Shown one piece after another: positions 1 to 14,383 of a stretch of 64,000 bases of DNA. Source of the DNA: an uncultured Rikenellaceae bacterium (lineage in GTDB: Bacteria; Bacteroidota; Bacteroidia; Bacteroidales; VadinHA17); the NCBI GenBank assembly GCA_964637415.1, contig CAZWUB010000001.1:566-64565 (forward strand). The letters run 5' to 3'. Below the pieces are notes generated by a model. That model was not told the origin of the DNA, ran no database searches, and saw nothing but the letters and a program-made list of their open reading frames with translations. Numbering within the stretch: position 1 is the first letter of the stretch; every line of letters starts with the position of its first letter. The position numbers were made by a program, and so were the translations under genes.

Positions 1-181
1 CGCAGAATGATGCAAATTCATCTTCAAAATTCTTAACAAGATCTGCACAATCGGGATTACCCCATTTCCCGCTGCGTACTACCTCCGCAACTGCATTTAT
101 ATCAGATTCATCATAAATTGGCCAGGGGAACTCCTTATTTATTGTTTTCGGGCCGCCGTTGATAGCTAAATCTTTTTGCAT
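1..181 (-). CDS. DegT/DnrJ/EryC1/StrS-family PLP-dependent sugar aminotransferase, N-terminal fragment (gene runs off the left edge)
   Basis: Not in the ORF track. My translation of the minus strand from the ATG at 181-179 gives MQKDLAINGGPKTINKEFPWPIYDESDINAVAEVVRSGKWGNPDCADLVKNFEDEFASFC, open to position 1. This N-terminal pattern is typical of the family. The start lies 5 nt after the stop of the upstream gene. Confidence 0.55.
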   Translation of the reverse strand, partial: MQKDLAINGGPKTINKEFPWPIYDESDINAVAEVVRSGKWGNPDCADLVKNFEDEFASFC

Positions 182-186
182 GATAA

Positions 187-1188
187 TTATTTTTTTAGAT
201 GTTCATAACATAATCTGACTGACAGGAGGGAAGATTCCGGAGTACATTCCGATGGTCCGGAATTATTCCTAAGACATCCGGCAAAATACTCAATCTCATT
301 GTAATAACCTGCGCCGATATCTCCGGCAGGAACCTCTTTCATCTTTATATTATCCGAGATCCCGATTACATCGCTTTTTAAAGTTGTATAGCTGATAGTT
401 GCATTTTCAAATCCTGCAATATATCCTGCCTGGAAAGGAAATGTTGAATGGAAAATATTTCCACCCTCGATCTTTACGAGGATGCCCTTGTCTTTGTAAG
501 TCCACATTGCCGAAACATAGTCATGATTGCTGAGCTTCCCCGGAAGGTATCCGGCAGTTATCTCATCCGGAATTCCAAGCACCCAGCCTGTAAAATCTAT
601 ATCATGGATCACCAGGTCGAAGAGCGCTCCCCCTGATTTGCAGGTAGTATTTTTATCATTCCAATCACCCCAGGCCGGGATCCCCGACATACGGGTGAGA
701 GACAGGAATTTTATCTCACCGAATTCCTTTGACTCAATCCATTGCCTGAGCTTCCTGTAGGGCTCCATGAACCTGACAACATGCCCCACCATCAGTATCA
801 GGCCCTTTTGCCTTGCAAGAAATATAAGTTCCTCACCCTGCTCCGGATCAAGACAAAATGGCTTCTCAACGAAAACATGTTTATTATGATTTAATGCCAG
901 CTTTGTCATTTCATAATGGAGATGCGTGTGGGTACAGATAATAACAGCATCTGCATCTTCAGAATGAAGGCAGGTATCAAGATCTGAATATTTCCTTATA
1001 CCTTCAATGTCTTTCCCCGAGATCTTTCCCGTTGAAATGTTTCCCGTTTCTGAGTTCAGCTTGCCTTCAATAAGATCGGGTCTGGCATCAACAACAGCAG
1101 CCAGTTCAAGATCTTTATTACCAAGAATGTTCAGAGTGTGAGTCATCCCCATGAATCCGAAACCTGCAACAACAACTTTTTTAACCAT
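187..1188 (-). CDS. Gfo/Idh/MocA-family NAD(P)-dependent oxidoreductase
   Basis: 333-aa ORF. The N-terminal Rossmann motif VVVAGFGFMGMTH and the EKP motif (VFVEKPF) are typical of the family. Confidence 0.8.
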   Translation of the reverse strand: MVKKVVVAGFGFMGMTHTLNILGNKDLELAAVVDARPDLIEGKLNSETGNISTGKISGKDIEGIRKYSDLDTCLHSEDADAVIICTHTHLHYEMTKLALNHNKHVFVEKPFCLDPEQGEELIFLARQKGLILMVGHVVRFMEPYRKLRQWIESKEFGEIKFLSLTRMSGIPAWGDWNDKNTTCKSGGALFDLVIHDIDFTGWVLGIPDEITAGYLPGKLSNHDYVSAMWTYKDKGILVKIEGGNIFHSTFPFQAGYIAGFENATISYTTLKSDVIGISDNIKMKEVPAGDIGAGYYNEIEYFAGCLRNNSGPSECTPESSLLSVRLCYEHLKK

Positions 1189-1223
1189 TCAAATAAATAT
1201 TTAGAATCATACAATTTATTCTA

Positions 1224-1342
1224 ATCCTTTGTGAATCCTTTGTGAAATCCTTAGAGCGCCTTTGTGGTTAAACAAAAATAGTTTTTTTAAACACAAAGAG
1301 CACTAAGGTTATCACAAAGGGACACGAAGGATTCACAAAGGA
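1224..1342. repeat. Inverted array of phased CCTTTGTG / CACAAAGG-type units around an A/T-rich centre, in a divergent intergenic region
   Basis: The left arm has 4 units (cctttgtg, cctttgtg, ccttagag, cctttgtg). The centre is aaaaatagttttttt. The right arm has 5 units (cacaaaga, cactaagg, cacaaagg, cacgaagg, cacaaagg) spaced 9-12 nt apart. Confidence 0.8.
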
Positions 1343-1410
1343 AAGGTAAAGATTACTAAAATTTCCGGGTTGATGAAGTTTTGTTTATTTTTATAACCAA
1401 TCATAATGTC

Positions 1411-2307
1411 ATGAGCAATAAAGAAAGTATCAGATCGAGGCGCAGTTTTGTAAAGAAACTGGCTGCAACAACCTTAGTCGCATTTACAACAAAGAATATG
1501 GAAACAAATGCTTTATTTTCAACAAGCTCTCCAGGTGCAGAGCTAAAGGGCAACATTAATCATTCGGCATGCCGCTGGTGTTATTCTTCGATCCCTTTTG
1601 AAGAGTTTTGTATGAAAGCAAAGGAGATAGGATTAAAAGCCGTGGATCTCGTAGGACCTGACGGATGGCCTGTTCTTAAGAAATACGGACTTGATTCATC
1701 GATGTGCAACGGTGCTGAAATTGATATTGCCAGAGGCTGGAATGACAAGCAGTACCATTCAACACTCGTAAAAAACTATTCCGGAATGATCCCTCTTGTT
1801 GCAAAGGCAGGATACAGGAATCTGATCCTTCTCAGCGGAAACCGTAACGGGATGGATGATGAAACGGGACTTAAAAATTGTGTTGAAGGCCTGAAACAGG
1901 TACTCGGGATTGCCGAAAAGCATAATGTGATGCTTGTTATGGAGCTTCTGAACAGCAAGGTTGATCATAAGGATTATATCTGTGATCATACATGCTGGGG
2001 AGTTGAGCTTGTTAAGAGGGCAGGTTCTGAAAATCTCAGGCTTCTTTATGATATTTACCACATGCAGTTGATGGAAGGCGATGTCATCAGGACAATCAGG
2101 GAGAATCATCAGTATATTGCCCACTATCACACAGGTGGTGTCCCCGGACGTAATGAACCGGATGAGAGCCAGGAGCTATATTATCCTGCTATAATGAAAG
2201 CAATTGTCGGAACTGGGTTTAAGGGATATGTAGCCCAGGAGTTTGTTCCGACCAGAACAGATAAGCTGGAATCACTTCGTCAGGCTGTAAGTATCTGTGA
2301 TGTATGA
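1411..2307 (+). CDS. Xylose-isomerase-like TIM-barrel protein (hydroxypyruvate isomerase / sugar phosphate isomerase-epimerase family) with a twin-arginine signal
   Basis: The track ORF is 1381..2307 and starts at TTG. I prefer the ATG at 1411 (MSNKESIRSRRSFVKKLAATTLVAF), which gives a Tat-type SRRxFVK signal. The body resembles the AP-endonuclease-2/TIM-barrel family (HYHTGG, AQEF). Confidence 0.65.
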   Translation: MSNKESIRSRRSFVKKLAATTLVAFTTKNMETNALFSTSSPGAELKGNINHSACRWCYSSIPFEEFCMKAKEIGLKAVDLVGPDGWPVLKKYGLDSSMCNGAEIDIARGWNDKQYHSTLVKNYSGMIPLVAKAGYRNLILLSGNRNGMDDETGLKNCVEGLKQVLGIAEKHNVMLVMELLNSKVDHKDYICDHTCWGVELVKRAGSENLRLLYDIYHMQLMEGDVIRTIRENHQYIAHYHTGGVPGRNEPDESQELYYPAIMKAIVGTGFKGYVAQEFVPTRTDKLESLRQAVSICDV

Positions 2308-3340
2308 TTTTTCTGAAATGAACGGATTTGAAAGAATTGATTCTGCCCTGAAAGGCAGAAAGCCCGACAGGGTGCCTGTGATGCTGCATAATTTCATGAT
2401 GGCTGCCAGGGAGCATGGTGTTACTATGGAACAGTACCGCAACAGCCCTGCAGTGATCGCTGATTGTTTTATTTCGGCTGTTGAGAAATATCAGTATGAC
2501 GGGATAGTAGTTGATATTGATACAGTGACACTAGCCGGCGCCGTGGGTGTCCCTGTTGATTTTCCGGTAAATGATCCGGCAAGAACTCATAGCGGAAATC
2601 TTATGAGCCTGGAAGATGTACAGCATCTGAAACCGGTAAGGGTTGAAGATTATAAGTATATTAATATCTGGCTTGAAGCAGTCAGGAAGTTAAGTGATAA
2701 GTTCGAAAACGAAATTTATATCAGGGGGAATTGTGATCAGGCACCATTTTCGCTTGCAAGCATGATGAGGGGTGTCCAGAACTGGATGGTCGATCTGATG
2801 ATGGGGAAGGAGGAACAAATATTTGAACTGCTTGATTACTGCACTGATGTTACATCTCAGTTCATTAAGCTGATGTCGCAGACCGGCTGCCATATGGTTT
2901 CAAATGGCGATAGTCCGGCAGGTCCTGAAATGATATCTGCTGCCTTGTACAGGAAATATGCCCTGCCTTCCGAAAAAATTATAGCTGAAAAGGCTCATGA
3001 AGGGGGAATGGCATATACCTTACATATCTGCGGAAAAACAGACGATATCCTTAAATCAATGCTGTTGACCGGAGCTGATGCAATTGAGCTTGATTATAAA
3101 ACGGATATTTCATCGATATTCAGGTATTTCAATGATAATACAACTTTTATCGGGAACATCGATCCGGCTAATGTTCTGGCATTGGGAACACCGGATCTTG
3201 TAAAGGAGAAAACTCTTGAATTGCTTGAGCTGTATAAGGATTCAAACCGTTTTATATTGAATGCAGGTTGTGCGATACCTCCGGAAACACCACCTGAAAA
3301 TTTAAGGATAATGATCGAAACAGCAAGAAAGTACAGATAA
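2300..3340 (+). CDS. Uroporphyrinogen decarboxylase (URO-D) family protein, MtaA/CmuA-like
   Basis: 347-aa ORF. It shows the N-terminal RPDRVPVM motif and the C-terminal NAGCAIPPETPPENL motif typical of the URO-D superfamily. The ATG at 2300 overlaps the upstream stop by 8 nt. Confidence 0.65.
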   Translation: MYDFSEMNGFERIDSALKGRKPDRVPVMLHNFMMAAREHGVTMEQYRNSPAVIADCFISAVEKYQYDGIVVDIDTVTLAGAVGVPVDFPVNDPARTHSGNLMSLEDVQHLKPVRVEDYKYINIWLEAVRKLSDKFENEIYIRGNCDQAPFSLASMMRGVQNWMVDLMMGKEEQIFELLDYCTDVTSQFIKLMSQTGCHMVSNGDSPAGPEMISAALYRKYALPSEKIIAEKAHEGGMAYTLHICGKTDDILKSMLLTGADAIELDYKTDISSIFRYFNDNTTFIGNIDPANVLALGTPDLVKEKTLELLELYKDSNRFILNAGCAIPPETPPENLRIMIETARKYR

Positions 3341-3461: not shown

Positions 3462-4769
3462 ATGATACCGCGTGTCACTTCCTGTCTTATCTCAGTTCTT
3501 ATCGCCTTTTTAATAATTTCGGGATGTAACAGCCGCAGTGCCAGAAATCCTGCAGGTTCCGCAAAACCCGGAACTGTTCAGAAGGAGGCAGAAGTAGTTG
3601 ATAAAGAAGAAGCTCCGGCTCTTGAAAAAGTAATATTCTTCATAGAGAACTCAGGCAGTATGTTTGGTTATGTAAACAGGGCCAATGAGTTCAAGAATTC
3701 ACTTGTGGGCCTTGCCTACCTTCCCGAATTTGATAAAGCATCAAAGAGCTTCTACTTCATAAACGGGAAATCCGACCAGTCAAAAAAATCAGATATCAGA
3801 ATAAACTATGTTGGAAATGATCCGGAAACCCTTAAGAATAATCTTGACCCGGTCTCATTCAATAAAGGTGATGTGAGATACAGTGATCTGAATGAGATGT
3901 TCAGGATCTCTCTCGATTCTGCAAAGGGGAACCAGGTTTCTGTCCTTGTCTCAGACTGTATATATGATGTGGGAGCTGAAAAGGATCCGCTTACATCATT
4001 GAATATCGAGATACATAAAACCCAGCAGGCTTTCCGTAACAGACTTGATAAAGAAGATATACAGACCCTTATAATTAAGGCATTATCAAAATTTGATGGT
4101 GACTATTTTTATGCATCTAAACGTGGATCAGTCAAAATATCAGATGAATACAGGCCTTTCTATATAATATTCTTTGGCAGGACGGAGTTCCTGAATGAAC
4201 TGCTTACCGAAAATAGCATTGGAAGCAAGATTGAAACTGAATTCGAAATTGCCCGTTTCTTTGTTAATGAGGAAAGAAATATCCCTTATCAGGTAGCCCC
4301 TTCCGTAAAACGTATAGGAAGTTTTAAGCTTGATTTTAAAGACAATTTACATCTGAATGATGCTGTGCCTCTCAAAGGAAAATTCCAGTTCACAATAGCA
4401 GCTGATTTCAGCTCACTTCCATTTTCTGATAACTATTATGCATCAGTTAATAATTATGAGTGTCTTTCTTCAAACTTCAGTGTGAGTGAAGTTGAAAAAA
4501 TATCAAAAAAAATACCGGGTATTGAAGGAACTCATCTGATCACGCTTTCAACAGATAAAAATCCTCTTGGGGAACTGGAGCTTGTATTGAAAAATTCAAT
4601 ACCTGAATGGATTATGGAAACTGATACTGATACTGAAGATTTAATTGACAGCAATCATACGTATGGATTCAGTTCACTTACTGATGCGATAAGCGAAGCA
4701 TACGCGTTTGAGAATAATAAGCAGGCAGGCCGGTACCCTGCTGTGTTCAGGATAAGAATATCAAATTAA
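3462..4769 (+). CDS. Lipoprotein with a vWA-like domain carrying a variant MIDAS (operon gene 1)
   Basis: Lipobox LIISGC, with Cys at 3525-3527. The motifs FFIENSGSM (3645-3659, DxSxS with E replacing D), RYSDLNEMF about 80 aa later, and VSVLVSDCIYD about 100 aa later follow vWA beta1/MIDAS spacing. Confidence 0.55.
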   Translation: MIPRVTSCLISVLIAFLIISGCNSRSARNPAGSAKPGTVQKEAEVVDKEEAPALEKVIFFIENSGSMFGYVNRANEFKNSLVGLAYLPEFDKASKSFYFINGKSDQSKKSDIRINYVGNDPETLKNNLDPVSFNKGDVRYSDLNEMFRISLDSAKGNQVSVLVSDCIYDVGAEKDPLTSLNIEIHKTQQAFRNRLDKEDIQTLIIKALSKFDGDYFYASKRGSVKISDEYRPFYIIFFGRTEFLNELLTENSIGSKIETEFEIARFFVNEERNIPYQVAPSVKRIGSFKLDFKDNLHLNDAVPLKGKFQFTIAADFSSLPFSDNYYASVNNYECLSSNFSVSEVEKISKKIPGIEGTHLITLSTDKNPLGELELVLKNSIPEWIMETDTDTEDLIDSNHTYGFSSLTDAISEAYAFENNKQAGRYPAVFRIRISN

Positions 4770-4775
4770 AATAAT

Positions 4776-5225
4776 ATGGGCAAATTCTTTGGTTCAATCT
4801 ATGATGGTATATTTAACATATATCACGAGTCATACCACGAGATCTTTCAGCATCTTTATGATAACGGAGGTTATACAAGGATGGGACTGGCATTTCTGCT
4901 GATACCTCTGACCGGATGGATCCTTTTCTATTTTCTCTGGAAATATCCTTACAGTAAAATATGGCACTGGCTGATCTGGACAGCAGTGATGGTACTCATC
5001 GTGGCGCTTGTTACAAACGGAATAGCAAATTCTGAAATATTCGGTTCAGGCAATCAGACATTGAATGATTTACTTGCCGATACAAGTACCGGTTATGCAG
5101 AATATGCCGGATCGCTGCCTGTAAAATATGTACTTACAAACAGCCTGCTTGCACTTATCCTCAGTTGCATTTATAGCCTGCTGATGAAGCAGTTCAGTAA
5201 AATTCATGTCCATTTACCATTTTAA
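4776..5225 (+). CDS. Small multi-pass inner-membrane protein, no recognisable family (operon gene 2)
   Basis: 149-aa ORF with three hydrophobic helices (LAFLLIPLTGWILFYFLW, WLIWTAVMVLIVALV, LTNSLLALILSCIYSLL). It starts 6 nt after gene 1. Confidence 0.6.
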   Translation: MGKFFGSIYDGIFNIYHESYHEIFQHLYDNGGYTRMGLAFLLIPLTGWILFYFLWKYPYSKIWHWLIWTAVMVLIVALVTNGIANSEIFGSGNQTLNDLLADTSTGYAEYAGSLPVKYVLTNSLLALILSCIYSLLMKQFSKIHVHLPF

Positions 5226-5236
5226 TTCAGGGAATC

Positions 5237-6721
5237 ATGGCAAGAAAACTATATATTTTCGCTATCGGCGGGACAGGATCAAGAGTATTGAAAGCATTAA
5301 CGATGCTTTTTGCATCGGGTGTTAAGATCGGGAATAATTTTGATACTGTTATTCCGGTAATAATCGACCCGGATACAAGTAACGGCGATCTTAATCGTAC
5401 AAAGGATATATTGCGCTTGTACCAGGAGATAAGGAACCAGGTTGACCAGCCTGATGATTTTTTCTCACAGGAGATAAGAACAATAAATGAAATGACTGTA
5501 AGCTCAGCGCTGGTAAATCCGGAATATTTTCAGTTCAAGCTTAAGGATACAGATAACAATACTTTCAACCAGTATATCGGATTTGACAGTATGAGTGACA
5601 ATATTGAGGAAAAGGACGACAAGAACTTTATAAAATCACTCTTTTCTTCACAGAATCTGAAATCCAATCTTGATGTGGGGTTTAAAGGCAATCCTAATAT
5701 GGGGTCGATAATTCTGAATCAGTTCACAAATTCGGATGACTTTAAGAAATTTGGTCAGACTTTCGGGGATGATGATGCCATCTTCATAATTAATTCAATA
5801 TTTGGCGGAACAGGGGCAGCAGGTTTTCCTTTATTGCTTAAAAACCTCAGGGGAAATAAAAGCATGCCAAGGTATGCAAAGATCAGCGTGGCTCCTGTAG
5901 GCGGAATTACATTTCTTCCATATTTCTCGCTGAACAGAAATGATGAAGTGAATGCAGAATCTTTTGAGGAGAAGGCCAAAATTGCAATAGAATATTATAA
6001 CCGGACAATAATTTCACTCAACCAGATCAATACATTATATTTCATCGGGAACAGGGGAAATACAAACCAGGAGGAATATGCTGTAGGAGGGCAGGAGCAG
6101 AGGAATAAGGCTCATTTCCTTGAACTTGCCGGTGCCCTGGCGATCCTTGATTTCTGTAAGGATGTTGATTCTCATAAATCGGGAACTCAGGTGAAGGAGT
6201 TCGGTATTGAACATGATACTCAGAATATTACATTTACAGATCTTAACATAGGTAATGCCAAACTGCTTTCGCCGCCTCTGACAAAGTTCAGGCTTTATAC
6301 AGAGTATCTCGATAAAGGATTATCAAAATCGCTCAATGTGTCGCGCTGGACAAAAAGTAATATCAGGCTGGTGAGGGGTAATAAACAATCGCTTCTGAAC
6401 AGTAATTATTTCAACAGCGCTGAATATAATACACAGATCCTGCCTTTTAATAATCACTTTACAGAATGGATCAGGGAAATGAAGGAAAACAAGCCGGTTT
6501 TCAGTCCTTTTGAGGAGATTTCTTCCGATGATGCGCTTGAACTTGTAAAGGGACAAACTCCAAAAGGAAATAAAAGCTTTAAAGCTCTCGATATTCAGAA
6601 CTGTTTGCTCACTGACAATATCTCAATCCGGAACAGGGAAAAGAAGCATACAATGCTCATCAAGATGTTTGGAAGATCAACAGAAAAGGTATTATTGAAA
6701 CGAAACCTTGTAATTCGCTGA
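5237..6721 (+). CDS. Divergent tubulin/FtsZ-superfamily GTPase-like protein (operon gene 3)
   Basis: T1-like loop IFAIGGTGSRV (5261-5281). T3-like loop GFKGNPNMGS (5678-5707; compare FtsZ GAGANPEVG). T4 tubulin-signature-like loop SIFGGTGAAGFPLL (5804-5824; compare FtsZ GGGTGTGAAPV). The three occur in the canonical order. Confidence 0.65.
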   Translation: MARKLYIFAIGGTGSRVLKALTMLFASGVKIGNNFDTVIPVIIDPDTSNGDLNRTKDILRLYQEIRNQVDQPDDFFSQEIRTINEMTVSSALVNPEYFQFKLKDTDNNTFNQYIGFDSMSDNIEEKDDKNFIKSLFSSQNLKSNLDVGFKGNPNMGSIILNQFTNSDDFKKFGQTFGDDDAIFIINSIFGGTGAAGFPLLLKNLRGNKSMPRYAKISVAPVGGITFLPYFSLNRNDEVNAESFEEKAKIAIEYYNRTIISLNQINTLYFIGNRGNTNQEEYAVGGQEQRNKAHFLELAGALAILDFCKDVDSHKSGTQVKEFGIEHDTQNITFTDLNIGNAKLLSPPLTKFRLYTEYLDKGLSKSLNVSRWTKSNIRLVRGNKQSLLNSNYFNSAEYNTQILPFNNHFTEWIREMKENKPVFSPFEEISSDDALELVKGQTPKGNKSFKALDIQNCLLTDNISIRNREKKHTMLIKMFGRSTEKVLLKRNLVIR

Positions 6722-6724
6722 ACT

Positions 6725-9700
6725 ATGTCTAAAGTATTCAGAATACATGAGGGACAGGATGGAACCGGTTGGTTCATCAGTAATCCCATTTCAAAAAATC
6801 AGCTCCGGACTGTCAAAACAGAAGGGAAGGATGTTGCTACCTCTATCCCCAGTCCGTTTGCAAGGATCGATCTGGTAAAATCAGCGTTTCGTTGGGTGGC
6901 AGATAATGGTATAAAAGGGACGACTGCCCAGCATAAGCTGGTATCGGATGCACTTGATGTGGCTCAGCTGTTTTTCCTTTACCCGAAGTATAAAGATAAA
7001 TACAGGATCATTTCATGGAAACCGGCTGACCGGTTCTTATCACTTGCCGCTGACTCAAACTCAAAGCATTCCAAGCTTTCTGAAACACTTCAGGTCTATT
7101 GGTCCCAGGATGCGGGCGTATATAATTTCGATAAGGTTAAAAGACTTTATTTTATCCTGAATAATTCAAATCAGATCATAGGAGGGACCTCTCCGGCGAC
7201 ATTGTTCTTTTCCGCACCCGATGCAAAAGAAGCAGCATCAGGCCTTAATATAACATGCGGACATGATGTCCTGTTCGATAATGTGTACACCGGTCTGTCG
7301 GAACGCGATGATAAGTCATTTATCGAATACTTATTCCTTTTATCCAGGCAGCCACATTTTCCCGATCTCTTCCCGGAAGTCTATTCATATATGGCTGAGG
7401 TATTTAATTGTCTGGATACTGAATTGCAGTCAAAGATAGCCTCCCTTGATCCATCTGAACTTGATAGTTATTCTCCCTGTCCGGTGCTTGATAATGAGAT
7501 GAATACATGTGAAGTGCTTGGTATAAAACTTGGTGTCAGGCTTGGTAATCCTGCAGAAATTCAAAAGGAAAGCGATTTTATTCTTAAACCCGGATTGCCT
7601 GTCAAGGGATTTGTGCCGCTGGTCCTGCCAAATGACAGATTTACACATAATTGGGCATACACGTCCGGAAATGTTCTGTGGGATCCGAATAATAAGGTCC
7701 CTTACAGGAATGAGAAATTTTACGGTGCATCGAAACTGCCTGTCCAGGGTGATAATTATCCCTGGCTGACTGCCGGTAATTTCTTTGAAGACAAAATAAT
7801 TGAATTACCCTATACTATCGACGGCAAGAAATTTTCCACCTGCGGGTCGACGAGACATTTTCTTCCTCTTACACCCTTATTCTTTGAGTATTTCAGGTCG
7901 GAAGATGTATCGCAGTACCTGCAGCTTACAACTCTGGCCGGGGGAGGAGTGGAGGCTAAGCTTGTTATCCCTGTGAAAGGAGGAGATGTGGTTCTCAAAA
8001 AATCCTGGCACCGCGAAGATATTATTCCAATGGAAATGCATCTGTCAATATTGCCGTTTATTCATGCCCCGGCTGCTGATCTGGATTATACAATAGGGAT
8101 ACAGGATAAGAGATTCAGCAGGGAAAGGGAATTGTCTGTTGAGTGTTATGAATCGGGGAAGCGCATCATTACAGGTAATCCGGTAATCAGGAAACAGGGG
8201 GATGGCAAAACAATTAAAAGTATCTGTTATAAAACAAAATCTTTTGATGCGATAAGGATAGGAAGCGATCCGGTAAACGGATTTATTGTTCCCATGATGT
8301 ACAGGAGTCAGCCTAACCAGCAGGTTTCATTTGCAATTGATTTTGGTACCACAAACACCCATATAGAGTATAAATATGGTGTAAATGCCGAAAACACACT
8401 CGACGTTTCATCTGACAAACCAATGTGGCAATCCCTTATAGACAGAACGAGGGGTGAAACAAAAGAAATAGCCGATGATAATAACTATGAACGGGAGCTG
8501 TTCCCCTATGAGTTCAGTCCATTTTCGAAGTATAAATTCCCTTTCAGGACTGCCCTGACATATAATCAGGACATCAGCTTCATAGAACCTGTCGATGTCT
8601 TTTCCCATACAAATAATTTCTTCCTTTTTGAAAAAATACTGAACCCGACATATCTTCAGTTGCAGACGAAGCTTAAATGGAGCAATTATTCAATGCCTGA
8701 GGATAAGATACTGGTGGAAAGTTTTATAGAGGGCTTAATATACATGGTCCTGTATAAGACATTGCTTCTTAACGGCGATCCACGGAAAACAAGAATAACC
8801 TGGTTTTATCCGGTCAGCATGGATGCATTCGAACAGGGTATATTCTTTGAGGTTTGGCAAAAAGCCTATAAGAAAATTTTCAGGGCAGACGGGACAAATA
8901 ATGTAAGGGCAGTGCCTGAAAGTACAGCCCCATATCTTTTTTACCGGACGGAATATCCCGGATTAAGTCTTTCAATAGATATAGGAGGCGGCTCCTCAGA
9001 TATTGCAGTGTTTAAAAATGCCAGCAATTCGCCGGAGTTCATTTCTTCTGTCAAATTTGCCGGAAATGCCATTTTCGGTGACGGCTTTCCGTACGGGGCC
9101 TTTGCCAATTCTTCGGATAATAATGGTTTCGTTAAAGTATACAGGAACAGAATAGAAAATGCAATAAATCAGAGTACACAGAGGTGGGAAATACTTACTG
9201 ATATTCTCAATAAAAGAAAGGACTCGGCTGATTTCAGCAGTTTCTTATTTTCACTCGAGAATGAGAAAGATCTTATATTCAGTTATACCGATTACCTTAA
9301 GCAGGACAGGAAGCTGAAGCTTCCTATACTCTTGTTTTATGGTGCAATAATTTATTATTCCGCAAATCTTCTAATGAAACAGGGGATGAAGGAAGTACCT
9401 CAGAATATACTTTTCAGCGGAACAGCTTCAAAAACTATCAGGATAATTGATACCAAGCCCGGGAATCCAAATATAACCGATCTTTTCAGGTATTTCTTTA
9501 AGAGGATAAATGGTATTGATAAATCACAGATAAGGATAGCCTTGTCGGAAAATCCAAAGGAAATTACATGCAGAGGGGCCCTGAAAGCTGATATGAACGA
9601 AGATCTGGTCAACTGTCCCATTGTGTTCTGGATCGGAGGAAATGATAATTCAGTATGGAGCAAAGCACTGGATAAGAATTCTGATATAGCTATAACGCCT

Positions 9701-10006
9701 TATTACAGGGATCTGGATCGCGATGGGAATAAATCTCTCATAGAAGGTTCAGTGAATCATTTCTTCAATCTGATGGATGAATACTTCATGTCAGTCAATC
9801 TTGAAGCAAATTTCGGGATCGACAATTCGGCCTGGCTGAAATTTAAGGAGATGCGGTCATTAAACATAACTGATTTCCTTGAACAGGGTCTGCAGGCATT
9901 TTATAAATCAGAATCAAAACATATCGAGGAAGCTTTATTCTTTTATCCCCTGATAGGTATTCTGAATAAGCTTGCTTTTGAACTGGCAAATACTCCTGAT
10001 AAATGA
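6725..10006 (+). CDS. 1093-aa protein with an uncharacterised N-terminal half and a C-terminal Hsp70/actin-fold (ASKHA) ATPase-like domain (operon gene 4)
   Basis: Phosphate-1 motif AIDFGTTNTH (8333-8362). Phosphate-2 motif SIDIGGGSSDIAV (8972-9010). Adenosine-like motif ILFSGTASKT (9407-9436), followed by EITCRGALKA. The spacings of about 213 and 145 aa are close to those in DnaK. The ATG lies 3 nt after the gene 3 stop. Confidence 0.6.
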   Translation: MSKVFRIHEGQDGTGWFISNPISKNQLRTVKTEGKDVATSIPSPFARIDLVKSAFRWVADNGIKGTTAQHKLVSDALDVAQLFFLYPKYKDKYRIISWKPADRFLSLAADSNSKHSKLSETLQVYWSQDAGVYNFDKVKRLYFILNNSNQIIGGTSPATLFFSAPDAKEAASGLNITCGHDVLFDNVYTGLSERDDKSFIEYLFLLSRQPHFPDLFPEVYSYMAEVFNCLDTELQSKIASLDPSELDSYSPCPVLDNEMNTCEVLGIKLGVRLGNPAEIQKESDFILKPGLPVKGFVPLVLPNDRFTHNWAYTSGNVLWDPNNKVPYRNEKFYGASKLPVQGDNYPWLTAGNFFEDKIIELPYTIDGKKFSTCGSTRHFLPLTPLFFEYFRSEDVSQYLQLTTLAGGGVEAKLVIPVKGGDVVLKKSWHREDIIPMEMHLSILPFIHAPAADLDYTIGIQDKRFSRERELSVECYESGKRIITGNPVIRKQGDGKTIKSICYKTKSFDAIRIGSDPVNGFIVPMMYRSQPNQQVSFAIDFGTTNTHIEYKYGVNAENTLDVSSDKPMWQSLIDRTRGETKEIADDNNYERELFPYEFSPFSKYKFPFRTALTYNQDISFIEPVDVFSHTNNFFLFEKILNPTYLQLQTKLKWSNYSMPEDKILVESFIEGLIYMVLYKTLLLNGDPRKTRITWFYPVSMDAFEQGIFFEVWQKAYKKIFRADGTNNVRAVPESTAPYLFYRTEYPGLSLSIDIGGGSSDIAVFKNASNSPEFISSVKFAGNAIFGDGFPYGAFANSSDNNGFVKVYRNRIENAINQSTQRWEILTDILNKRKDSADFSSFLFSLENEKDLIFSYTDYLKQDRKLKLPILLFYGAIIYYSANLLMKQGMKEVPQNILFSGTASKTIRIIDTKPGNPNITDLFRYFFKRINGIDKSQIRIALSENPKEITCRGALKADMNEDLVNCPIVFWIGGNDNSVWSKALDKNSDIAITPYYRDLDRDGNKSLIEGSVNHFFNLMDEYFMSVNLEANFGIDNSAWLKFKEMRSLNITDFLEQGLQAFYKSESKHIEEALFFYPLIGILNKLAFELANTPDK

Positions 10007-10779
10007 GAATACCAGTGTTTTTTGGCTTTAATGCCCTGATCCTTCTGACATGGATCTGGGGCTTATCGGGTTTCCTGATGGGTCTTCTTGTGGGTTGCCT
10101 TGCAGTTTTTCTGTATTCCCGGTATAGCATTTATAGTATACTTGATACTGAAAAGAAGAAATACCTGAAGGATCTGGAGAAAGATACAAGGAATAACCCT
10201 TTTCACAGAGAAGTATTTAAATATATAGGTATAGTGGAGATTTTAAAGAAAAGGAAAAATCTTAAACAGGACCAGCTTATTGCCAAGAATAATACAATAG
10301 CCGAATTAATGGTGCAGAATGAGGAATTATTCGATGATATTGAACAATTAAGGAAAAGACTGATCAACCTGAAGATGAACAAGGAGAATCAGGCTTCGGC
10401 CAGTGAAGGATCTTATGTCAGGTCTCATGAACCGGCAGTAAAAGCTGAAAATCCGGCGGATATCTTTTTTACTATTCCGGAAAGCGATGGTAGTTTCAGG
10501 ATAATTAATGCACAGCATACAAAAGGTGTTGACTGTTTTTATAAAATTATCCCTGACAGGAGTGAGCAGAAAGGCGTCCTTCAGTATTTATCGGGCGATT
10601 ATGATTTACGGGCCCTGGAAAATATTGATTATTATTTAAATCCTGTTTGTGAGATACAGAATATTTCAGGCAGGACATTCGCGAAAAGAATAGTAATGAC
10701 TGAATCCGGAAGTGTGATCAGGAGAAATGATACCTGGCAGATTGAAGAAAATGGAAAAGTAAAAGTAAAACTTGTTTGA
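10003..10779 (+). CDS. Membrane-anchored coiled-coil protein with a small C-terminal beta-rich domain (operon gene 5)
   Basis: N-terminal hydrophobic hairpin (VFFGFNALILLTWIWGLSGFLMGLLVGCLAVFLY), then a heptad-like stretch (IAELMVQNEELFDDIEQLRKRLINLKM). The start overlaps the gene 4 stop as ATGA. Confidence 0.55.
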   Translation: MRIPVFFGFNALILLTWIWGLSGFLMGLLVGCLAVFLYSRYSIYSILDTEKKKYLKDLEKDTRNNPFHREVFKYIGIVEILKKRKNLKQDQLIAKNNTIAELMVQNEELFDDIEQLRKRLINLKMNKENQASASEGSYVRSHEPAVKAENPADIFFTIPESDGSFRIINAQHTKGVDCFYKIIPDRSEQKGVLQYLSGDYDLRALENIDYYLNPVCEIQNISGRTFAKRIVMTESGSVIRRNDTWQIEENGKVKVKLV

Positions 10780-12440
10780 TAATGGTCCTTCTTCAGATAG
10801 TCACTGACACATTAAACACTTCTCAGACAGCTGTTCAGTCTGTTAATCCGTGGTTTGTGGCTGAAATTATCCTTATTATCAGCGTCATAATCTGGCAGCT
10901 CTTACTTTCAGGGAAAATCTATCTGAAAATAAAACAGTTGAAGGAAATATTCACATATCCTTTAAAGGTCAGAAGCGGATATATTAAAAAGAAATACCTT
11001 AACAGGAAAGATACTGCAGTAGATGATATTGTATTTATCAGCGATGAGGAAAGCGTAAAAGAGCAAAGCAGTCAGAACGATGATGATTCTGTCAAAATAG
11101 CAATAACTGAAGCCTATGGCTCAGAAACAATTCTGAGGATAAGAGATTATATAAATACCTATCTTCTTAATAATTACGGAGCTGCGGTCAATTTCAGCAT
11201 AATAAAAGATTTCATCGACCGTGAAGCGGACCTTAAAGATGAAGAAATTTCCAATTCATTGCCCACTCCCTTATATTTAGGTCTTGCTTCCACAATGATC
11301 GGTATTATCTGCGGGTTGTTTGCAATGCCTGCCCTGGGCGGAGGACAGTTTTCACAAGGCATAGATGCCCTGATAAATGGTGTCAAGCTGGCAATGCTGG
11401 GAAGCTTAACAGGTCTCTTATGTACCACAATCCTGACTTCATTTCTTTATAAGAAGGCAAGAAAGTCGTTGCTTGAAGATAAGAATAAACAGATATCCTA
11501 TCTGCAGGCCTGGTTGCTTCCCGAACTTATAAAAGCTGAAGATACAGGAGTGTCGGGACTAAAAGCAAGTCTCGACAGGTTTGCAAGGCTTGCCGGCGGT
11601 ATTTCTGACAATATCCTCAAAGCCTCAGATCAGACGGGCCATAATATCCTGTTGCAACAGGATGTGATCAGACAGGTGGGAGATCTGGATATCCTGAAAA
11701 TCTCAGAAGCAAACCTTGACCTGTTCAGGAGGCTTGAGGAGAATATGGCTTCATTCGGGAAATTCTCTGAATATATTTCACTGATGAGTCAGATCTCAGA
11801 CAACCTTAAGGAATTTGCAGGCCGGACCAGGAATATAGATCAGATAGTTAATCAGATAGACCTCTCGCTTAAAGATAATGCCCGTTTATTACAGTTCCTT
11901 ACATCCCATTTTGAAAAGATTGAACAGGCAGGACTGAATTCCCTGAAGGCTGTGGATATGGCCGACCTTAGTTTCGCTGATGCGATTGATAAGCTTGAAA
12001 AGGAAATAAGTAACAGGCAGAAGGTTCTGAATAATGCTGCTGCAGATGCTGACGGACATGCCAGAGAGGCAATCGGAACTTTACACGAAGAAGTGGATAA
12101 AAGGATTGCCTTGTTGAATAAAAGTGTGGATGATGCCTTTCCAAGGTTTAACCACCTTGATCAGCTTGAACGTCTTCAGGGTATACAGGAGGCCATTTCA
12201 TCAGGCAATGAAGGCATAAATACCCTGATAATGGCTGTTAATAATCTTAATAGTTCTCTTTCAAACAACAGTATTCTGCACAAGCTCGATTCGATTGAAG
12301 ATCATTTGAGTAAAAGAAGGACCAGACCGGAACAGTCTTCGGTTAAGCCGGAACCCGATGTAAAGAACCGGATAATAAGGATCTGGACCAGAGTCCAGAA
12401 ACAGGTAAAGCCTTACTTCAGGATAAGAAAGCGGAAATAA
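10776..12440 (+). CDS. MotA/TolQ/ExbB-family channel-like protein with a long helical cytoplasmic tail, ZorA-like architecture (operon gene 6)
   Basis: One N-terminal TM helix. The TM pair at 11262-11450 (PLYLGLASTMIGIICGLF ... GIDALINGVKLAMLGSLTGLLCTTILTSFLY) resembles the conserved MotA/ExbB helices. A charged helical tail of about 330 aa follows and ends in the basic stretch RIIRIWTRVQKQVKPYFRIRKRK. The start is either TTG at 10776 (overlap TTGA) or ATG at 10782. Confidence 0.6.
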   Translation: MIMVLLQIVTDTLNTSQTAVQSVNPWFVAEIILIISVIIWQLLLSGKIYLKIKQLKEIFTYPLKVRSGYIKKKYLNRKDTAVDDIVFISDEESVKEQSSQNDDDSVKIAITEAYGSETILRIRDYINTYLLNNYGAAVNFSIIKDFIDREADLKDEEISNSLPTPLYLGLASTMIGIICGLFAMPALGGGQFSQGIDALINGVKLAMLGSLTGLLCTTILTSFLYKKARKSLLEDKNKQISYLQAWLLPELIKAEDTGVSGLKASLDRFARLAGGISDNILKASDQTGHNILLQQDVIRQVGDLDILKISEANLDLFRRLEENMASFGKFSEYISLMSQISDNLKEFAGRTRNIDQIVNQIDLSLKDNARLLQFLTSHFEKIEQAGLNSLKAVDMADLSFADAIDKLEKEISNRQKVLNNAAADADGHAREAIGTLHEEVDKRIALLNKSVDDAFPRFNHLDQLERLQGIQEAISSGNEGINTLIMAVNNLNSSLSNNSILHKLDSIEDHLSKRRTRPEQSSVKPEPDVKNRIIRIWTRVQKQVKPYFRIRKRK

Positions 12441-12442
12441 TC

Positions 12443-13111
12443 ATGAAGAAGAATAATATTTTCTGGATTGGTTATTCTGATTTAATGACAAGCATGTTCT
12501 TCATAATGCTTGTTCTTTTTGTGGTGGCTATCGGATACCTGCTTGTAAAAAATGATGAGAACAGTGAGCTGATCGGTGAGCTGACTGTAAGGGAACAGGG
12601 TCTTATTCAGGAAACCGAAAGGCTCCAGAAGCTTCTGAATCTTGAAGAACAATTTGAGCCACTGATCAGCGACAGCAGCTTTTATTACCTTCCTGACTGT
12701 AAGAAATTCATTGTAAAAGACCTTATGGGGATAGAGATATTTGATCCCAACCAGGTGAAGATCAAGAGAGAGTATATTCAGCGTACGATAGCGGTGGGGA
12801 AGAAAATAGACCGCTTTCTTGCTGATTTAAGCCGCAGTAATAAGGGTTTTTCATATCTGCTTGTCATTGAAGGTAATATGGCCAATGATTATCGTCATTC
12901 AAAACCGCCCGACAGGCCGGATTTTTATATCAGAAGCTATTCAAGAGCTCTTGCTGTATATAACCTCTGGCTAAGTGAAGGAATCAATTTCAGGAAATAT
13001 GATGTTGAAGTGATGATCTGTGGCAGCGGTCTTAACGGTCTGTGCCGCGATCCTGTCGAAGAGAACAATAAACGGTTCTCAATTCAGATAATTCCTAAAG
13101 TTTCGAAATAA
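12443..13111 (+). CDS. MotB/ZorB-like protein with a single TM helix carrying the conserved Asp and a C-terminal OmpA-like domain (operon gene 7)
   Basis: N-terminus IFWIGYSDLMTSMFFIMLVLFVV matches the MotB W..YADxMT pattern, with Asp13 at 12479-12481. The C-terminus has an OmpA_C-like pattern (LLVIEGNMAND ... RSYSRALAVYNLWL ... ICGSGLNG ... NNKRFSIQI). It starts 2 nt after gene 6. Confidence 0.7.
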   Translation: MKKNNIFWIGYSDLMTSMFFIMLVLFVVAIGYLLVKNDENSELIGELTVREQGLIQETERLQKLLNLEEQFEPLISDSSFYYLPDCKKFIVKDLMGIEIFDPNQVKIKREYIQRTIAVGKKIDRFLADLSRSNKGFSYLLVIEGNMANDYRHSKPPDRPDFYIRSYSRALAVYNLWLSEGINFRKYDVEVMICGSGLNGLCRDPVEENNKRFSIQIIPKVSK

Positions 13112-13129
13112 CTTTCAATTACACAACTC

Positions 13130-14383
13130 TTATTTTGCTTTGATATTGTAAGCCATCAGAGCATTTGAGTGCCGGAGGTAGAGAATCCCGTTTTTGATCA
13201 CCGGGTGAGCCCAGTATGGTCCCGGAGAACCCTGAGTGACCTTAAAGGTACTGACCAGATCGAATTTCGCACTGCCGGGTTTCAGTAATCCGACATTCCC
13301 GGTCTTTTCTTCATAGATATACAGCATTCCGTCGGCATATATTATTGAGCCTTTATTGTGCCAGTGCTCTTCCCACATCTTTTTACCAGTGTTCCATTCG
13401 ATGCAGCACCAGTTACCGTTCCCGTTATTCAGCCAGTTGGCGCCATAAATATATCCGTTAACAAGTACAACACCTCCGTGATGAACATCGAGGACCTTAT
13501 CAGTCCAGACTGCCTTTGCACTTTTTCCATCTTTTGCTATTTCAATCATCATTCCGCCGGTATCATAGCCTCCTGTTACATAGACCCTGCCATTATTGAA
13601 TAAAGGAGTAACGCATTTTATCAGATCCCTTCCGCCGGCTCGTGCTTCATGTACGACCTTCCAGAGAATATCGCCGTTTGAAGCATCAACACCGAAGGCA
13701 TGTCCCAGGGAAACATTTATTATCATTTTCTTTCCTCCGTAATTCACAAGTATAGGAGAGACATAACCGGGTTTATCATTAAGGCTTGCTGATTTCCACA
13801 GGAGAGTGCCTTTTGTTTTATCGAGAGCTATTGTCATTGTTTCGGGCCCTCCGGGAGAATAGTACACTTTATTCCCGTCTAAAAGCAGTGATTCCGCTAT
13901 ACCCCAGCTGCCGTATGTTCCTTTGTGAAGTTCGCTTGCTTTATATGTCCAGACGATCTTCCCTGTGTTCCCGTCGATGCAGGCGAGGTCTCCGAAGCCG
14001 CTCGTACAGTAAACCCTGTTGCCTTCGACAGTGGGAGTAGCCCGGCTTTCAGGATTGGAGGCTTTCCAGGCCCTTCCGTAAACAGTCTGCCAGAGTATCT
14101 TGCCGTTCATATCAAGGGCATACAGGATATCGTCATTACCGCTGTTACCTGTTGTATAGATCTTATTATTTCCGAATGTTACCGATGAATGTCCTTTGGC
14201 AAGGTCGAGGTTCTCCCAGATCAGTTGCGGTCCGTTTGCCGGCCATGATTTCAACAGACCGGTCTCCGCTGAATTACCGGTTCGGTTCTCTTCACGCCAT
14301 TCGCTGATTTCCTGGGCTGAAAGGAAGCCTGAAAAAATTGATAGAAGGATTATAGTCAGTGTGGTGGTTCTGAATTTCATCAT
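13130..14383 (-). CDS. Secreted PQQ-like/BamB-like beta-propeller repeat protein
   Basis: 417-aa ORF with a signal peptide (LLSIFSGFLSAQE). Repeated G.ILW / G.IVW / GDILWK blades are typical of PQQ-like propellers. Confidence 0.7.
   Translation of the reverse strand: MMKFRTTTLTIILLSIFSGFLSAQEISEWREENRTGNSAETGLLKSWPANGPQLIWENLDLAKGHSSVTFGNNKIYTTGNSGNDDILYALDMNGKILWQTVYGRAWKASNPESRATPTVEGNRVYCTSGFGDLACIDGNTGKIVWTYKASELHKGTYGSWGIAESLLLDGNKVYYSPGGPETMTIALDKTKGTLLWKSASLNDKPGYVSPILVNYGGKKMIINVSLGHAFGVDASNGDILWKVVHEARAGGRDLIKCVTPLFNNGRVYVTGGYDTGGMMIEIAKDGKSAKAVWTDKVLDVHHGGVVLVNGYIYGANWLNNGNGNWCCIEWNTGKKMWEEHWHNKGSIIYADGMLYIYEEKTGNVGLLKPGSAKFDLVSTFKVTQGSPGPYWAHPVIKNGILYLRHSNALMAYNIKAK

Follow-up and report, generated by a model that had tools for sequence, protein, structure and literature searches.

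A divergent tubulin-superfamily protein encoded beside an actin-like protein and a ZorAB-like stator in a patchily distributed gene cluster of Bacteroidota

What kind of protein carries tubulin-like nucleotide-binding loops in a bacterial gene cluster that also encodes a putative stator, and what might it do there? The question is raised by a stretch of 64,000 nucleotides from an uncultured Rikenellaceae bacterium (GenBank assembly GCA_964637415.1, contig CAZWUB010000001.1, positions 566 to 64,565 of the forward strand; here called the window, whose own numbering is used throughout). It contains a cluster of seven tightly packed co-directional genes, g1 to g7, all on the + strand, the third of which, g3 (5237..6721, ATG start), encodes a protein of 494 amino acids (aa). 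A sequence-only reading had taken this product for a divergent member of the tubulin/FtsZ superfamily that works outside cell division and is coupled to a stator. Taken as a whole, including the mechanism proposed below, the locus is very probably best explained by g3 being a diverged, non-division tubulin-superfamily protein that forms a subunit of a patchy, accessory gene cluster of Bacteroidota.

The assignment starts from three short motifs, which had been picked out in N- to C-terminal order and are all located in the 494-aa product. AIGGTGS (aa 9–15; 5261..5281) resembles the T1 loop and lies inside the Pfam Tubulin match, which begins at aa 8; GFKGNPNMGS (aa 148–157; 5678..5707) resembles the T3 loop, as judged by hhalign against FtsZ and phmmer against the T3 region of CetZ2; and FGGTGAAGFP (aa 189–198; 5801..5830) aligns with the T4 loops of CetZ and FtsZ. 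In 81 representatives of the g3 family that share 30–46% identity with the window protein, there is no variation at G11, G12 and G14 of the first motif, at G148, G151, P153 and G156 of the second, or at S187, I188, G190, G191, T192, G193, G196 and P198 in and around the third. Further invariant columns are P228 and Y229, and a block around G284, Q288 and E296; a 142-sequence alignment of the family gave an identical outcome. Since the motif columns are invariant family-wide, these are no chance runs of glycine. In this family the T4 signature has the form GGTGA[AS]G (aa 190–196), a variant of GGGTG[ST]G, and the strict PROSITE-type T4 pattern is not fitted by g3, in which the final glycine lies one position off.

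The spacing of the loops can be compared with that in Escherichia coli FtsZ, where T1, T3, T4 and T5 start at residues 19, 69, 105 and 134; the corresponding starts in g3 are 9, 148, 189 and 227. The last of these belongs to LPYF (aa 227–230; 5915..5926), which follows strand S5 and is probably T5-like, to judge from the invariant proline and tyrosine and from a position relative to T4 like that of PFxFEG in FtsZ. The distances from T3 to T4 (41 aa vs 36 in FtsZ) and from T4 to the T5-like segment (38 vs 29) are near-canonical. An insertion of about 130 aa between T1 and T3 had been proposed; an insertion is indeed present, but its size had been overestimated, as T1 and T3 lie 139 aa apart in g3 and 50 aa apart in E. 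coli FtsZ, which leaves about 89 aa. By this spacing, a family-specific insert is placed between H2 and T3 (approximately aa 68–147; 5438..5677), and in the AlphaFold2 (AF2) model it folds into short helices and strands with a predicted local distance difference test score (pLDDT) of about 69–89.

Profile searches point to the same superfamily. Within Pfam, g3 is matched solely by Tubulin (PF00091; E=1.4e-3, 19.4 bits, aa 8–219 aligned to profile positions 5–149) and by Tubulin_2 (PF13809; E=0.018, 14.8 bits), the latter being the FtsZl1 family; a search of NCBIfam with g3 gave no match. At E≤0.01 the Tubulin profile is found in 72 of the 81 diverse relatives (best E=7.7e-7) and Tubulin_2 in 68 (best E=8.3e-8), and no other family recurs. 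Homologues that exceed the Tubulin_2 gathering score of 27 include P0271 (28.8 bits) and a plasmid-borne protein of Gloeothece (40.8 bits). Sequence searches of the PDB, with g3 alone and with two family profiles, returned CetZ proteins only, aligned at the T3/T4 region with marginal E-values of 0.025–0.46. A match of g3 to the PADLOC model PDC-M02B (E=1.1e-3, 40 residues) was set aside as spurious; it is present in one of the 81 family members.

Structure prediction agrees with the profiles. The AF2 model of g3, built from the 142-sequence alignment, has a mean pLDDT of 87.8 and a predicted template modelling (TM) score of 0.91. When it was compared with 350,542 PDB chains by Foldseek, the top 50 matches were all tubulin, FtsZ, CetZ or TubZ, with a probability of about 1.0; among them are CetZ2 (4B45, E=5.1e-4), gamma, alpha and beta tubulins, TubZ (4EI7) and FtsZ (1W59, 5ZUE, 3WGL). 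A search of the BFVD database placed phage tubulins/PhuZ on top. Alignment of the g3 family profile to E. coli FtsZ with hhalign set VGFKGNPNMGS on LGAGANPEVGR (T3) and IFGGTGAAGFP on MGGGTGTGAAP (T4). The glycine-rich loops do not map to a different fold.

Three points count against this assignment. The window protein lies below both Pfam gathering scores (19.4 vs 33 bits for Tubulin, 14.8 vs 27 for Tubulin_2), the Foldseek matches are specific yet weak (TM 0.22–0.38; best E about 5e-4, range 1e-4 to 1e-2), and the hhalign comparison with a single FtsZ sequence has a weak E-value of 0.1 and served for loop mapping only. The subthreshold Pfam scores and low TM-scores, together with a glycine-rich loop behind an N-terminal beta-strand that resembles GxGxxG, would fit a generic Rossmann-type dinucleotide-binding protein whose likeness to tubulin is convergent. 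That explanation is largely refuted and strikes us as very improbable: it is unsupported because no dehydrogenase or Rossmann family occurs among the Pfam matches of the 81 members or in the Foldseek PDB top 50, and it sits badly with T3 (GxxGNPxxG) and T4 (GGTGxxG) motifs that follow the order and spacing seen in tubulins and can be aligned with FtsZ and CetZ, and with relatives of g3 that clear the Tubulin_2 gathering score. Pfam recurrence, the AF2/Foldseek result, loop alignment and motif spacing in combination establish, at the level of sequence and predicted structure, that g3 belongs to the tubulin/FtsZ superfamily, and the sequence-only reading is supported on this point.

The family so defined is large and nearly anonymous. 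A database clustered at 90% identity yielded 2,386 matches among the scored candidates, all unnamed or "hypothetical", and the family amounts to 1,953 representative clusters at 50% identity (E≤1e-3). In one UniRef entry a member is named "Tubulin/FtsZ GTPase domain-containing protein".

Which parts of a tubulin has g3 retained? The nucleotide-binding half is kept, with T1, T3, T4, the T5-like loop, an S6/T6-like IG(N/D) and an H7-like helix. The predicted H7-like core helix region (aa 288–308; 6098..6160) has conserved Q288, N290, A292, H293, E296, D305 and F306, and would contact the base. The canonical T7 loop and the C-terminal domain are lost or remodelled past recognition. As had been noted from the translation, T7 is missing: the pattern N.D..[DE] occurs nowhere in g3. 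Equally, the C-terminus has neither an FtsZ C-terminal peptide nor, by Pfam, an FtsZ_C or Tubulin_C domain. Beyond the H7-like helix the model is mostly alpha-helical, and the region from aa 338 to 494 (6248..6718), which is mostly helical by DSSP of the AF2 model, has no Pfam match.

These losses bear on whether g3 would form polymers at all. It could instead be a monomeric or dimeric GTP-binding switch of tubulin descent that does not polymerise and acts as a regulatory nucleoside triphosphatase (NTPase) for the actin-like protein encoded next to it. We regard this as a substantial possibility that stops short of probable. It draws on the missing canonical T7 loop, on the chiefly helical C-terminal region and on the earlier suspicion that FtsZl1 proteins either use a novel mechanism of filament formation or make no filaments (PMC2875224). 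Set against it are the tetrapeptide KEFG right behind H7 (aa 320–323; 6194..6205), in which E321 and G323 are conserved in 91% and 90%, respectively, and E321 could replace the T7/H8 acid, and Foldseek alignments some of which span 370–590 columns and so extend past the N-terminal domain. As a stand-in for the T7/H8 catalytic acid, E321 is a candidate that we infer from sequence conservation.

The genomic setting of g3 gives the next line of evidence. In a scan that used one genome per species, relatives of g3 were found in at least 584 species genomes, mostly of Bacteroidota (Bacteroidales, Cytophagales, Flavobacteriales and Chitinophagales) and sporadically in other phyla. Gene neighbourhoods were counted at 53 related loci with enough flanking DNA. 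All 53 have a g1-like and a g4-like gene flanking g3, with g1 always upstream, while ZorA-like and ZorB-like genes are present at 41 and 40 of them. The invariant core of the cluster is the g1 lipoprotein, the small membrane protein g2, g3 and g4. A g1/g3/g4-like trio is also carried by cyanobacterial plasmids, namely Gloeothece verrucosa plasmid NC_014503.1 (L084, 6881-16788), whose g3 homologue bears the PGAP name 'tubulin-like doman-containing protein', and plasmids of Picosynechococcus. These cyanobacterial plasmids are mobilizable, and two coiled-coil-like proteins follow the trio. A phage collection contained no match to g3 and IMG/VR only 11, so g3 is not a phage gene.

The most constant partner downstream of g3 is g4 (6725..10006), which encodes a 1093-aa MreB/actin-like protein of the ASKHA superfamily, as indicated by profile searches, AF2 modelling and Foldseek. 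Its C-terminal half holds the motifs DFGTTNTH (aa 539–546), DIGGGSSD (aa 752–759) and FSGTASK, with the ASKHA phosphate motifs intact. A family profile searched against the PDB matched MreB (E=2.4e-4), then actin, FtsA and Hsc70, and the AF2 model (pLDDT 82.2) matched MreB, BeeR, ParM, actin and MamK in Foldseek at E-values of about 1e-8 with TM-scores (target) of 0.5–0.59. The N-terminal half, some 530 aa, matches nothing. In two database proteins, P0121 and P0122 (1558 and 1534 aa), g3 and g4 are fused end to end; these fusions argue strongly that the two act together, presumably in direct physical cooperation.

A tubulin-like and an MreB-like gene side by side could suggest a second, specialised division or cell-shape cytoskeleton, that is, a paralogue pair of the housekeeping FtsZ and MreB, and certain g4 homologues have been automatically annotated as 'cell division protein FtsA'. 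We consider this scarcely credible. The distribution across species is patchy and the genomic neighbourhoods vary, the system is found on cyanobacterial plasmids, no dcw or mre genes are nearby, g3 has no FtsZ C-terminal peptide or FtsZ_C domain, and the cluster comes with hydrolase effectors and a ZorAB-like module. That g3 is not the cell-division ftsZ had also been argued from its neighbours, and there are indeed no dcw genes in the operon or its immediate flanks.

Upstream of g3, g1 (3462..4769) encodes a lipoprotein of about 435 aa with a MIPRVTSCLISVLIAFLIISGC lipobox; C21, S63, S65 and D164 are conserved in its family. An invariant E-x-S-x-S motif (ENSGSM) with a conserved aspartate further downstream (SDxIYS) resembles the metal ion-dependent adhesion site of vWA domains with the aspartate changed to glutamate. 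No Pfam or PDB profile match to a vWA fold was obtained for g1, which is thus at most a candidate vWA protein. Between g1 and g3 lies g2 (4776..5225), which by its sequence encodes a small membrane protein of 149 aa with about three hydrophobic helices; in related loci this slot is occupied by an open reading frame (ORF) of 135–177 aa, and tblastn detects g2 itself in 19 of the 53. The product of g5 (10003..10779), a 258-aa membrane/coiled-coil protein with a hydrophobic N-terminus, as read from its sequence, occupies a variable position: it is detected in 11 of the 53 loci, and elsewhere other small genes fill the slot. The description of the cluster as an operon of membrane proteins holds in the main, in that most products are membrane proteins or lipoproteins together with a ZorAB-like stator pair; it does not hold for g4, directly downstream of g3, whose product is soluble and actin-like.

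That stator pair is encoded by g6 and g7. The product of g6 (10776..12440) is a ZorA-like subunit of the MotA/ExbB/TolQ family, 554 aa long, with a long C-terminal helical tail. It matches PADLOC ZorA2 (E=2.4e-8), and in searches of the PDB its family profile finds type I ZorA best (8VVN_C, E=1.6e-8), along with 8VVI_F (type II) and the ZorA chain 8QYH_A; the tail region matches coiled-coil proteins. The product of g7 (12443..13111), a ZorB/MotB-like subunit of 222 aa with an OmpA-like C-terminal domain, has a transmembrane segment, FWIGYSDLMTSMFF, that carries Asp13 (nucleotides 12479-12481), which is invariant in 28 sequences (FWxSYSDLMTS). It matches PADLOC ZorB1 (E=4.1e-7), and its family profile finds ZorB 8VVN_B (1.9e-14) and E. 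coli ZorB 8QYD_F (3.2e-7), with flagellar MotB behind at 5e-4. The NCBIfam ZorA/ZorB scores of g6 and g7 are far below the cutoffs. Neither PADLOC nor NCBIfam gave a match among g1–g5 to ZorC/D (type I), ZorE (type II) or ZorF/G (type III). At one locus, in Geofilum sp. (L009, 18949-19569), a second ZorB-like paralogue (MKKDNIFWISYSDLMTSLFF...) comes straight after the first and is followed by a lipoprotein with a CSGCSPSGRR motif.

What follows the stator genes varies. Among the products of co-directional genes that come directly behind the ZorB-like gene at 35 diverse loci are trypsin-like peptidases (Trypsin_2; 10), aspartyl proteases of the retropepsin-like kind (8), Endonuclease_NS (4), SNase (3), transglutaminase-like (3) and Exo_endo_phos (2) proteins. 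Most of these products have lipoprotein signal peptides (terminal lipoproteins occur at loci L002, L022, L024, L031, L044, L049, L051, L054-L057, L059, L064, L065, L072, L076, L077 and L080), and in many the sequence C-S-(R/K)-S-G-R stands just behind the lipobox cysteine. This motif recurs across unrelated folds (trypsin-like, retropepsin-like, Endonuclease_NS, SNase and transglutaminase) and might serve in sorting or docking. A post-lipobox motif common to g1 and the effector lipoproteins was also considered and dropped; it is confined to the window's clade and is not general. Eight loci of a Spirosoma/Cytophagales sub-clade (L025, L029, L031, L032, L035, L039, L043 and L050) keep g1–g4, but where the stator genes would be expected they encode a secreted protein (about 446 aa) and a lipoprotein of the aspartyl-protease type.

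We propose that the most likely role of the cluster would be that of a Zorya-like, envelope-linked conflict or defence machine, a suggestion that leans on analogy. In this scheme g3 would bind GTP and, with g4, build an assembly or switch under nucleotide control on the inner side of the membrane; in about three quarters of the loci, this would be paired with a ZorAB-like 5:2 proton-driven stator of the Zorya type. By analogy with Zorya, the g6/g7 motor may relay an event at the envelope to the membrane-proximal g3/g4 NTPase assembly, which would then serve as a scaffold or a switch. The output would probably pass through the variable lipoprotein proteases and nucleases encoded at the cluster end in most relatives and be conflict-related, either defence or antagonism, since swappable terminal genes of this kind are a pattern typical of conflict and defence systems.

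Several observations speak against parts of this proposal. Without an NxDxxD T7 loop, cooperative GTPase activity and polymerisation are not implied for g3. Apart from g6 and g7, no component of the cluster matches any PADLOC model, and in the Spirosoma/Cytophagales sub-clade no ZorAB-like pair is detectable. The window cluster and its close relatives end at g7, before a convergent gene, and have no adjacent effector. The terminal effectors that g3 and g4 would control are periplasmic lipoproteins, whereas g3 and g4 themselves are cytoplasmic. Finally, analysis of the flanks of related loci gave no clear defence-island signal.

The flanking genes themselves vary by locus and include five integrases and only scattered defence genes. 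In Flavobacterium akiainvivens (L001, 18136-21437) a Cas9-like gene (RuvC_III, HNH) stands directly after the cluster and an HsdR_N-domain gene before it, and at locus L002 WYL-domain and Endonuclease_NS genes lie downstream; such genes hint that the cluster lies in a defence neighbourhood in some genomes, but this does not hold across loci in general. The flanks of the window cluster look metabolic or unrelated, to judge from their sequences. By eye, positions 1-3340 contain a Gfo/Idh/MocA-like oxidoreductase ORF, a TIM-barrel-like ORF and a URO-D-like ORF, and positions 13130-14383 a convergent gene whose product, 417 aa long and with a signal peptide, shows repeats of WxxG-type, beta-propeller-like motifs. 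No effector lipoprotein bearing CS(R/K)SGR turned up when the window was searched for one. A scan for sigma-70 promoters and terminators gave background level, the sigma-70 model being unsuited to Bacteroidota promoters, and the base composition of the cluster is unremarkable.

The main rival to the conflict or defence role follows a proposal made by Makarova and Koonin for FtsZl1, and holds that the cluster is a machine for membrane remodelling, vesicle formation or the deployment of lipoprotein cargo, and not an immune system. Filaments and a motor driven by the proton-motive force (PMF) would then reshape the envelope or deliver lipoprotein hydrolases in nutrition, predation or antagonism. 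It can call on the terminal genes, which encode signal-peptide lipoprotein hydrolases, many with C-S-(R/K)-S-G-R behind the lipobox; on the lipoprotein g1 and the membrane proteins g2 and g5; on flanks that are not clearly defence islands; on the 2010 prediction that operons of FtsZl1, vWA and OmpA genes function in membrane remodelling or vesicle biogenesis (PMC2875224); and on analogy with the Agl-Glt system of Myxococcus, in which a MotAB-like motor, MreB and a vWA lipoprotein are combined (PMC9946355). We nevertheless judge it somewhat unlikely: the stator is specifically closest to ZorAB of Zorya, long tail included, a swappable protease/nuclease module with a patchy, mobile distribution (integrases, plasmids) is typical of conflict systems, and no secretion-system components are present.

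How new is such a cluster? A tentative suggestion, which we would not call probable, is that it represents a fourth Zorya-like immune system or else a kind of envelope machine not recognised before, with a PMF-driven ZorAB-type rotary stator, a tubulin-superfamily GTPase and an actin-superfamily ATPase that together control exported lipoprotein proteases or nucleases; if true, it would be the first prokaryotic operon to combine all three classes of force- or assembly-generating proteins. The sequence-only reading had called the coupling of a non-division tubulin homologue to a stator mechanistically new. The coupling is frequent (41 of 53 loci) and not universal, and as a gene association it is not unprecedented, since FtsZl1 genes beside MotA/TolQ/ExbB and OmpA/COG1360 genes were already tabulated in 2010 for Deinococcus, Anabaena and Cyanothece (Additional file 5, PMC2875224). 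That the wider FtsZl1/Tubulin_2 group is tubulin-like is also known already. In the searchable literature we found no description of the short Bacteroidota family of about 490 aa, of the invariant pairing or fusion of g3 with a giant MreB-like protein, or of a Zorya-type stator and swappable lipoprotein hydrolases alongside a tubulin-like protein.

To our knowledge, tubulin homologues outside division (FtsZ), plasmid and phage segregation (TubZ, PhuZ) and archaeal shape (CetZ) are almost unstudied, and we know of no experimental work on the FtsZ-like/Tubulin_2 branch since the 2010 prediction. A compact and widespread representative of this unexplored branch, with a confident model, is available in g3, which comes with three testable partners: the MreB-like protein (sometimes fused), the Zorya-type stator and the swappable lipoprotein hydrolases. 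It also bears on whether tubulin-fold proteins that have no T7 loop can still polymerise. Should the cluster be a defence system, it would extend Zorya-type signalling to effectors of cytoskeletal superfamilies; should it remodel the envelope, it would reveal a new bacterial use of the tubulin and actin folds.

Among known systems, the nearest named relatives of g3 are the FtsZ-like proteins of the Pfam family Tubulin_2, introduced as FtsZl1 (Makarova and Koonin, 2010; PMC2875224) and called 'FtsZ-like' more recently (Santana-Molina et al., 2023; PMC9871819). FtsZl1 proteins were described as sparsely distributed; they carry inserts in the interval from T1 to T4, end in a C-terminus unlike that of FtsZ and have no identifiable T7, and their genes adjoin those for vWA, OmpA and MotA-like proteins (PMC2875224). 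Similarly, the divergent GTPase domain of g3 conserves T1 and T4 and carries, between these two loops, inserts specific to its family; the protein has no recognisable T6-H7/T7 and no C-terminal domain of the FtsZ/tubulin type, and is sparse and patchy in its distribution. The operons correspond in part, with an upstream protein, small membrane proteins and MotA/TolQ/ExbB and OmpA/MotB-like genes, as in Deinococcus DR_0540 to DR_0536. In contrast, FtsZl1 proteins are about 900–1150 aa long with a central coiled coil and an alpha-helical C-terminal domain, whereas g3 has 494 aa and no long coiled coil in its model, and the window protein falls below the Tubulin_2 threshold, with few family members above it. 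The 2010 list contains no members of the Bacteroidota g3 family or its operon type; its sole true Bacteroidetes FtsZl1 is a 913-aa Bacteroides caccae protein beside a cysteine protease (PMC2875224). Furthermore, an MreB/actin-like partner of about 1100 aa is not described for FtsZl1, the g3 cluster has no kinases or P-loop GTPases, and the lipoprotein upstream of g3 is not detectably vWA. In view of these differences we set the g3 family apart, as a separate short branch on the margin of FtsZl1/Tubulin_2.

The better known tubulin homologues CetZ, FtsZ, TubZ and PhuZ provide the top matches of g3 in sequence (CetZ) and in structure (CetZ2, TubZ, FtsZ and phage tubulin), and their loops can be aligned with those of g3 in a common order. 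They differ from g3, which is only about 10–14% identical to them, in that g3 has a large insert ahead of T3, no NxDxxD T7 loop and a helical C-terminal region, and in context, since g3 is found with neither a dcw cluster nor TubR and a centromere and is not phage-borne.

In Zorya, ZorAB forms a 5:2 motor driven by protons, which needs the peptidoglycan-binding domain of its B subunit and the long cytoplasmic tail of its A subunit to transmit a signal from the envelope to soluble effectors (PMC11946911, PMC11890865). Three types of Zorya are recognised, none with a tubulin-like partner. The likeness of the g3 cluster to Zorya lies in g6 and g7, which are most similar to the solved ZorA and ZorB (8VVN, 8QYD, 8VVI), in the long helical C-terminal tail of g6 and the transmembrane aspartate and OmpA-like domain of g7, and in the union of a motor and soluble cytoplasmic partners within one operon. 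The differences are that the partners of g6/g7 are tubulin-like and actin-like NTPases and a lipoprotein, that about a quarter of the related clusters have no ZorAB-like pair, and that the anti-phage role of the g3 cluster is a prediction only.

A conceptual likeness, with no homology claimed, connects the cluster with the Agl-Glt machinery of Myxococcus, where the PMF-driven MotAB/TolQR-type motor AglRQS is combined with MreB and the vWA lipoprotein CglB (PMC9946355). That machinery has no tubulin-like component. The genes around g3, by comparison, form a compact accessory operon that includes genes for hydrolases.

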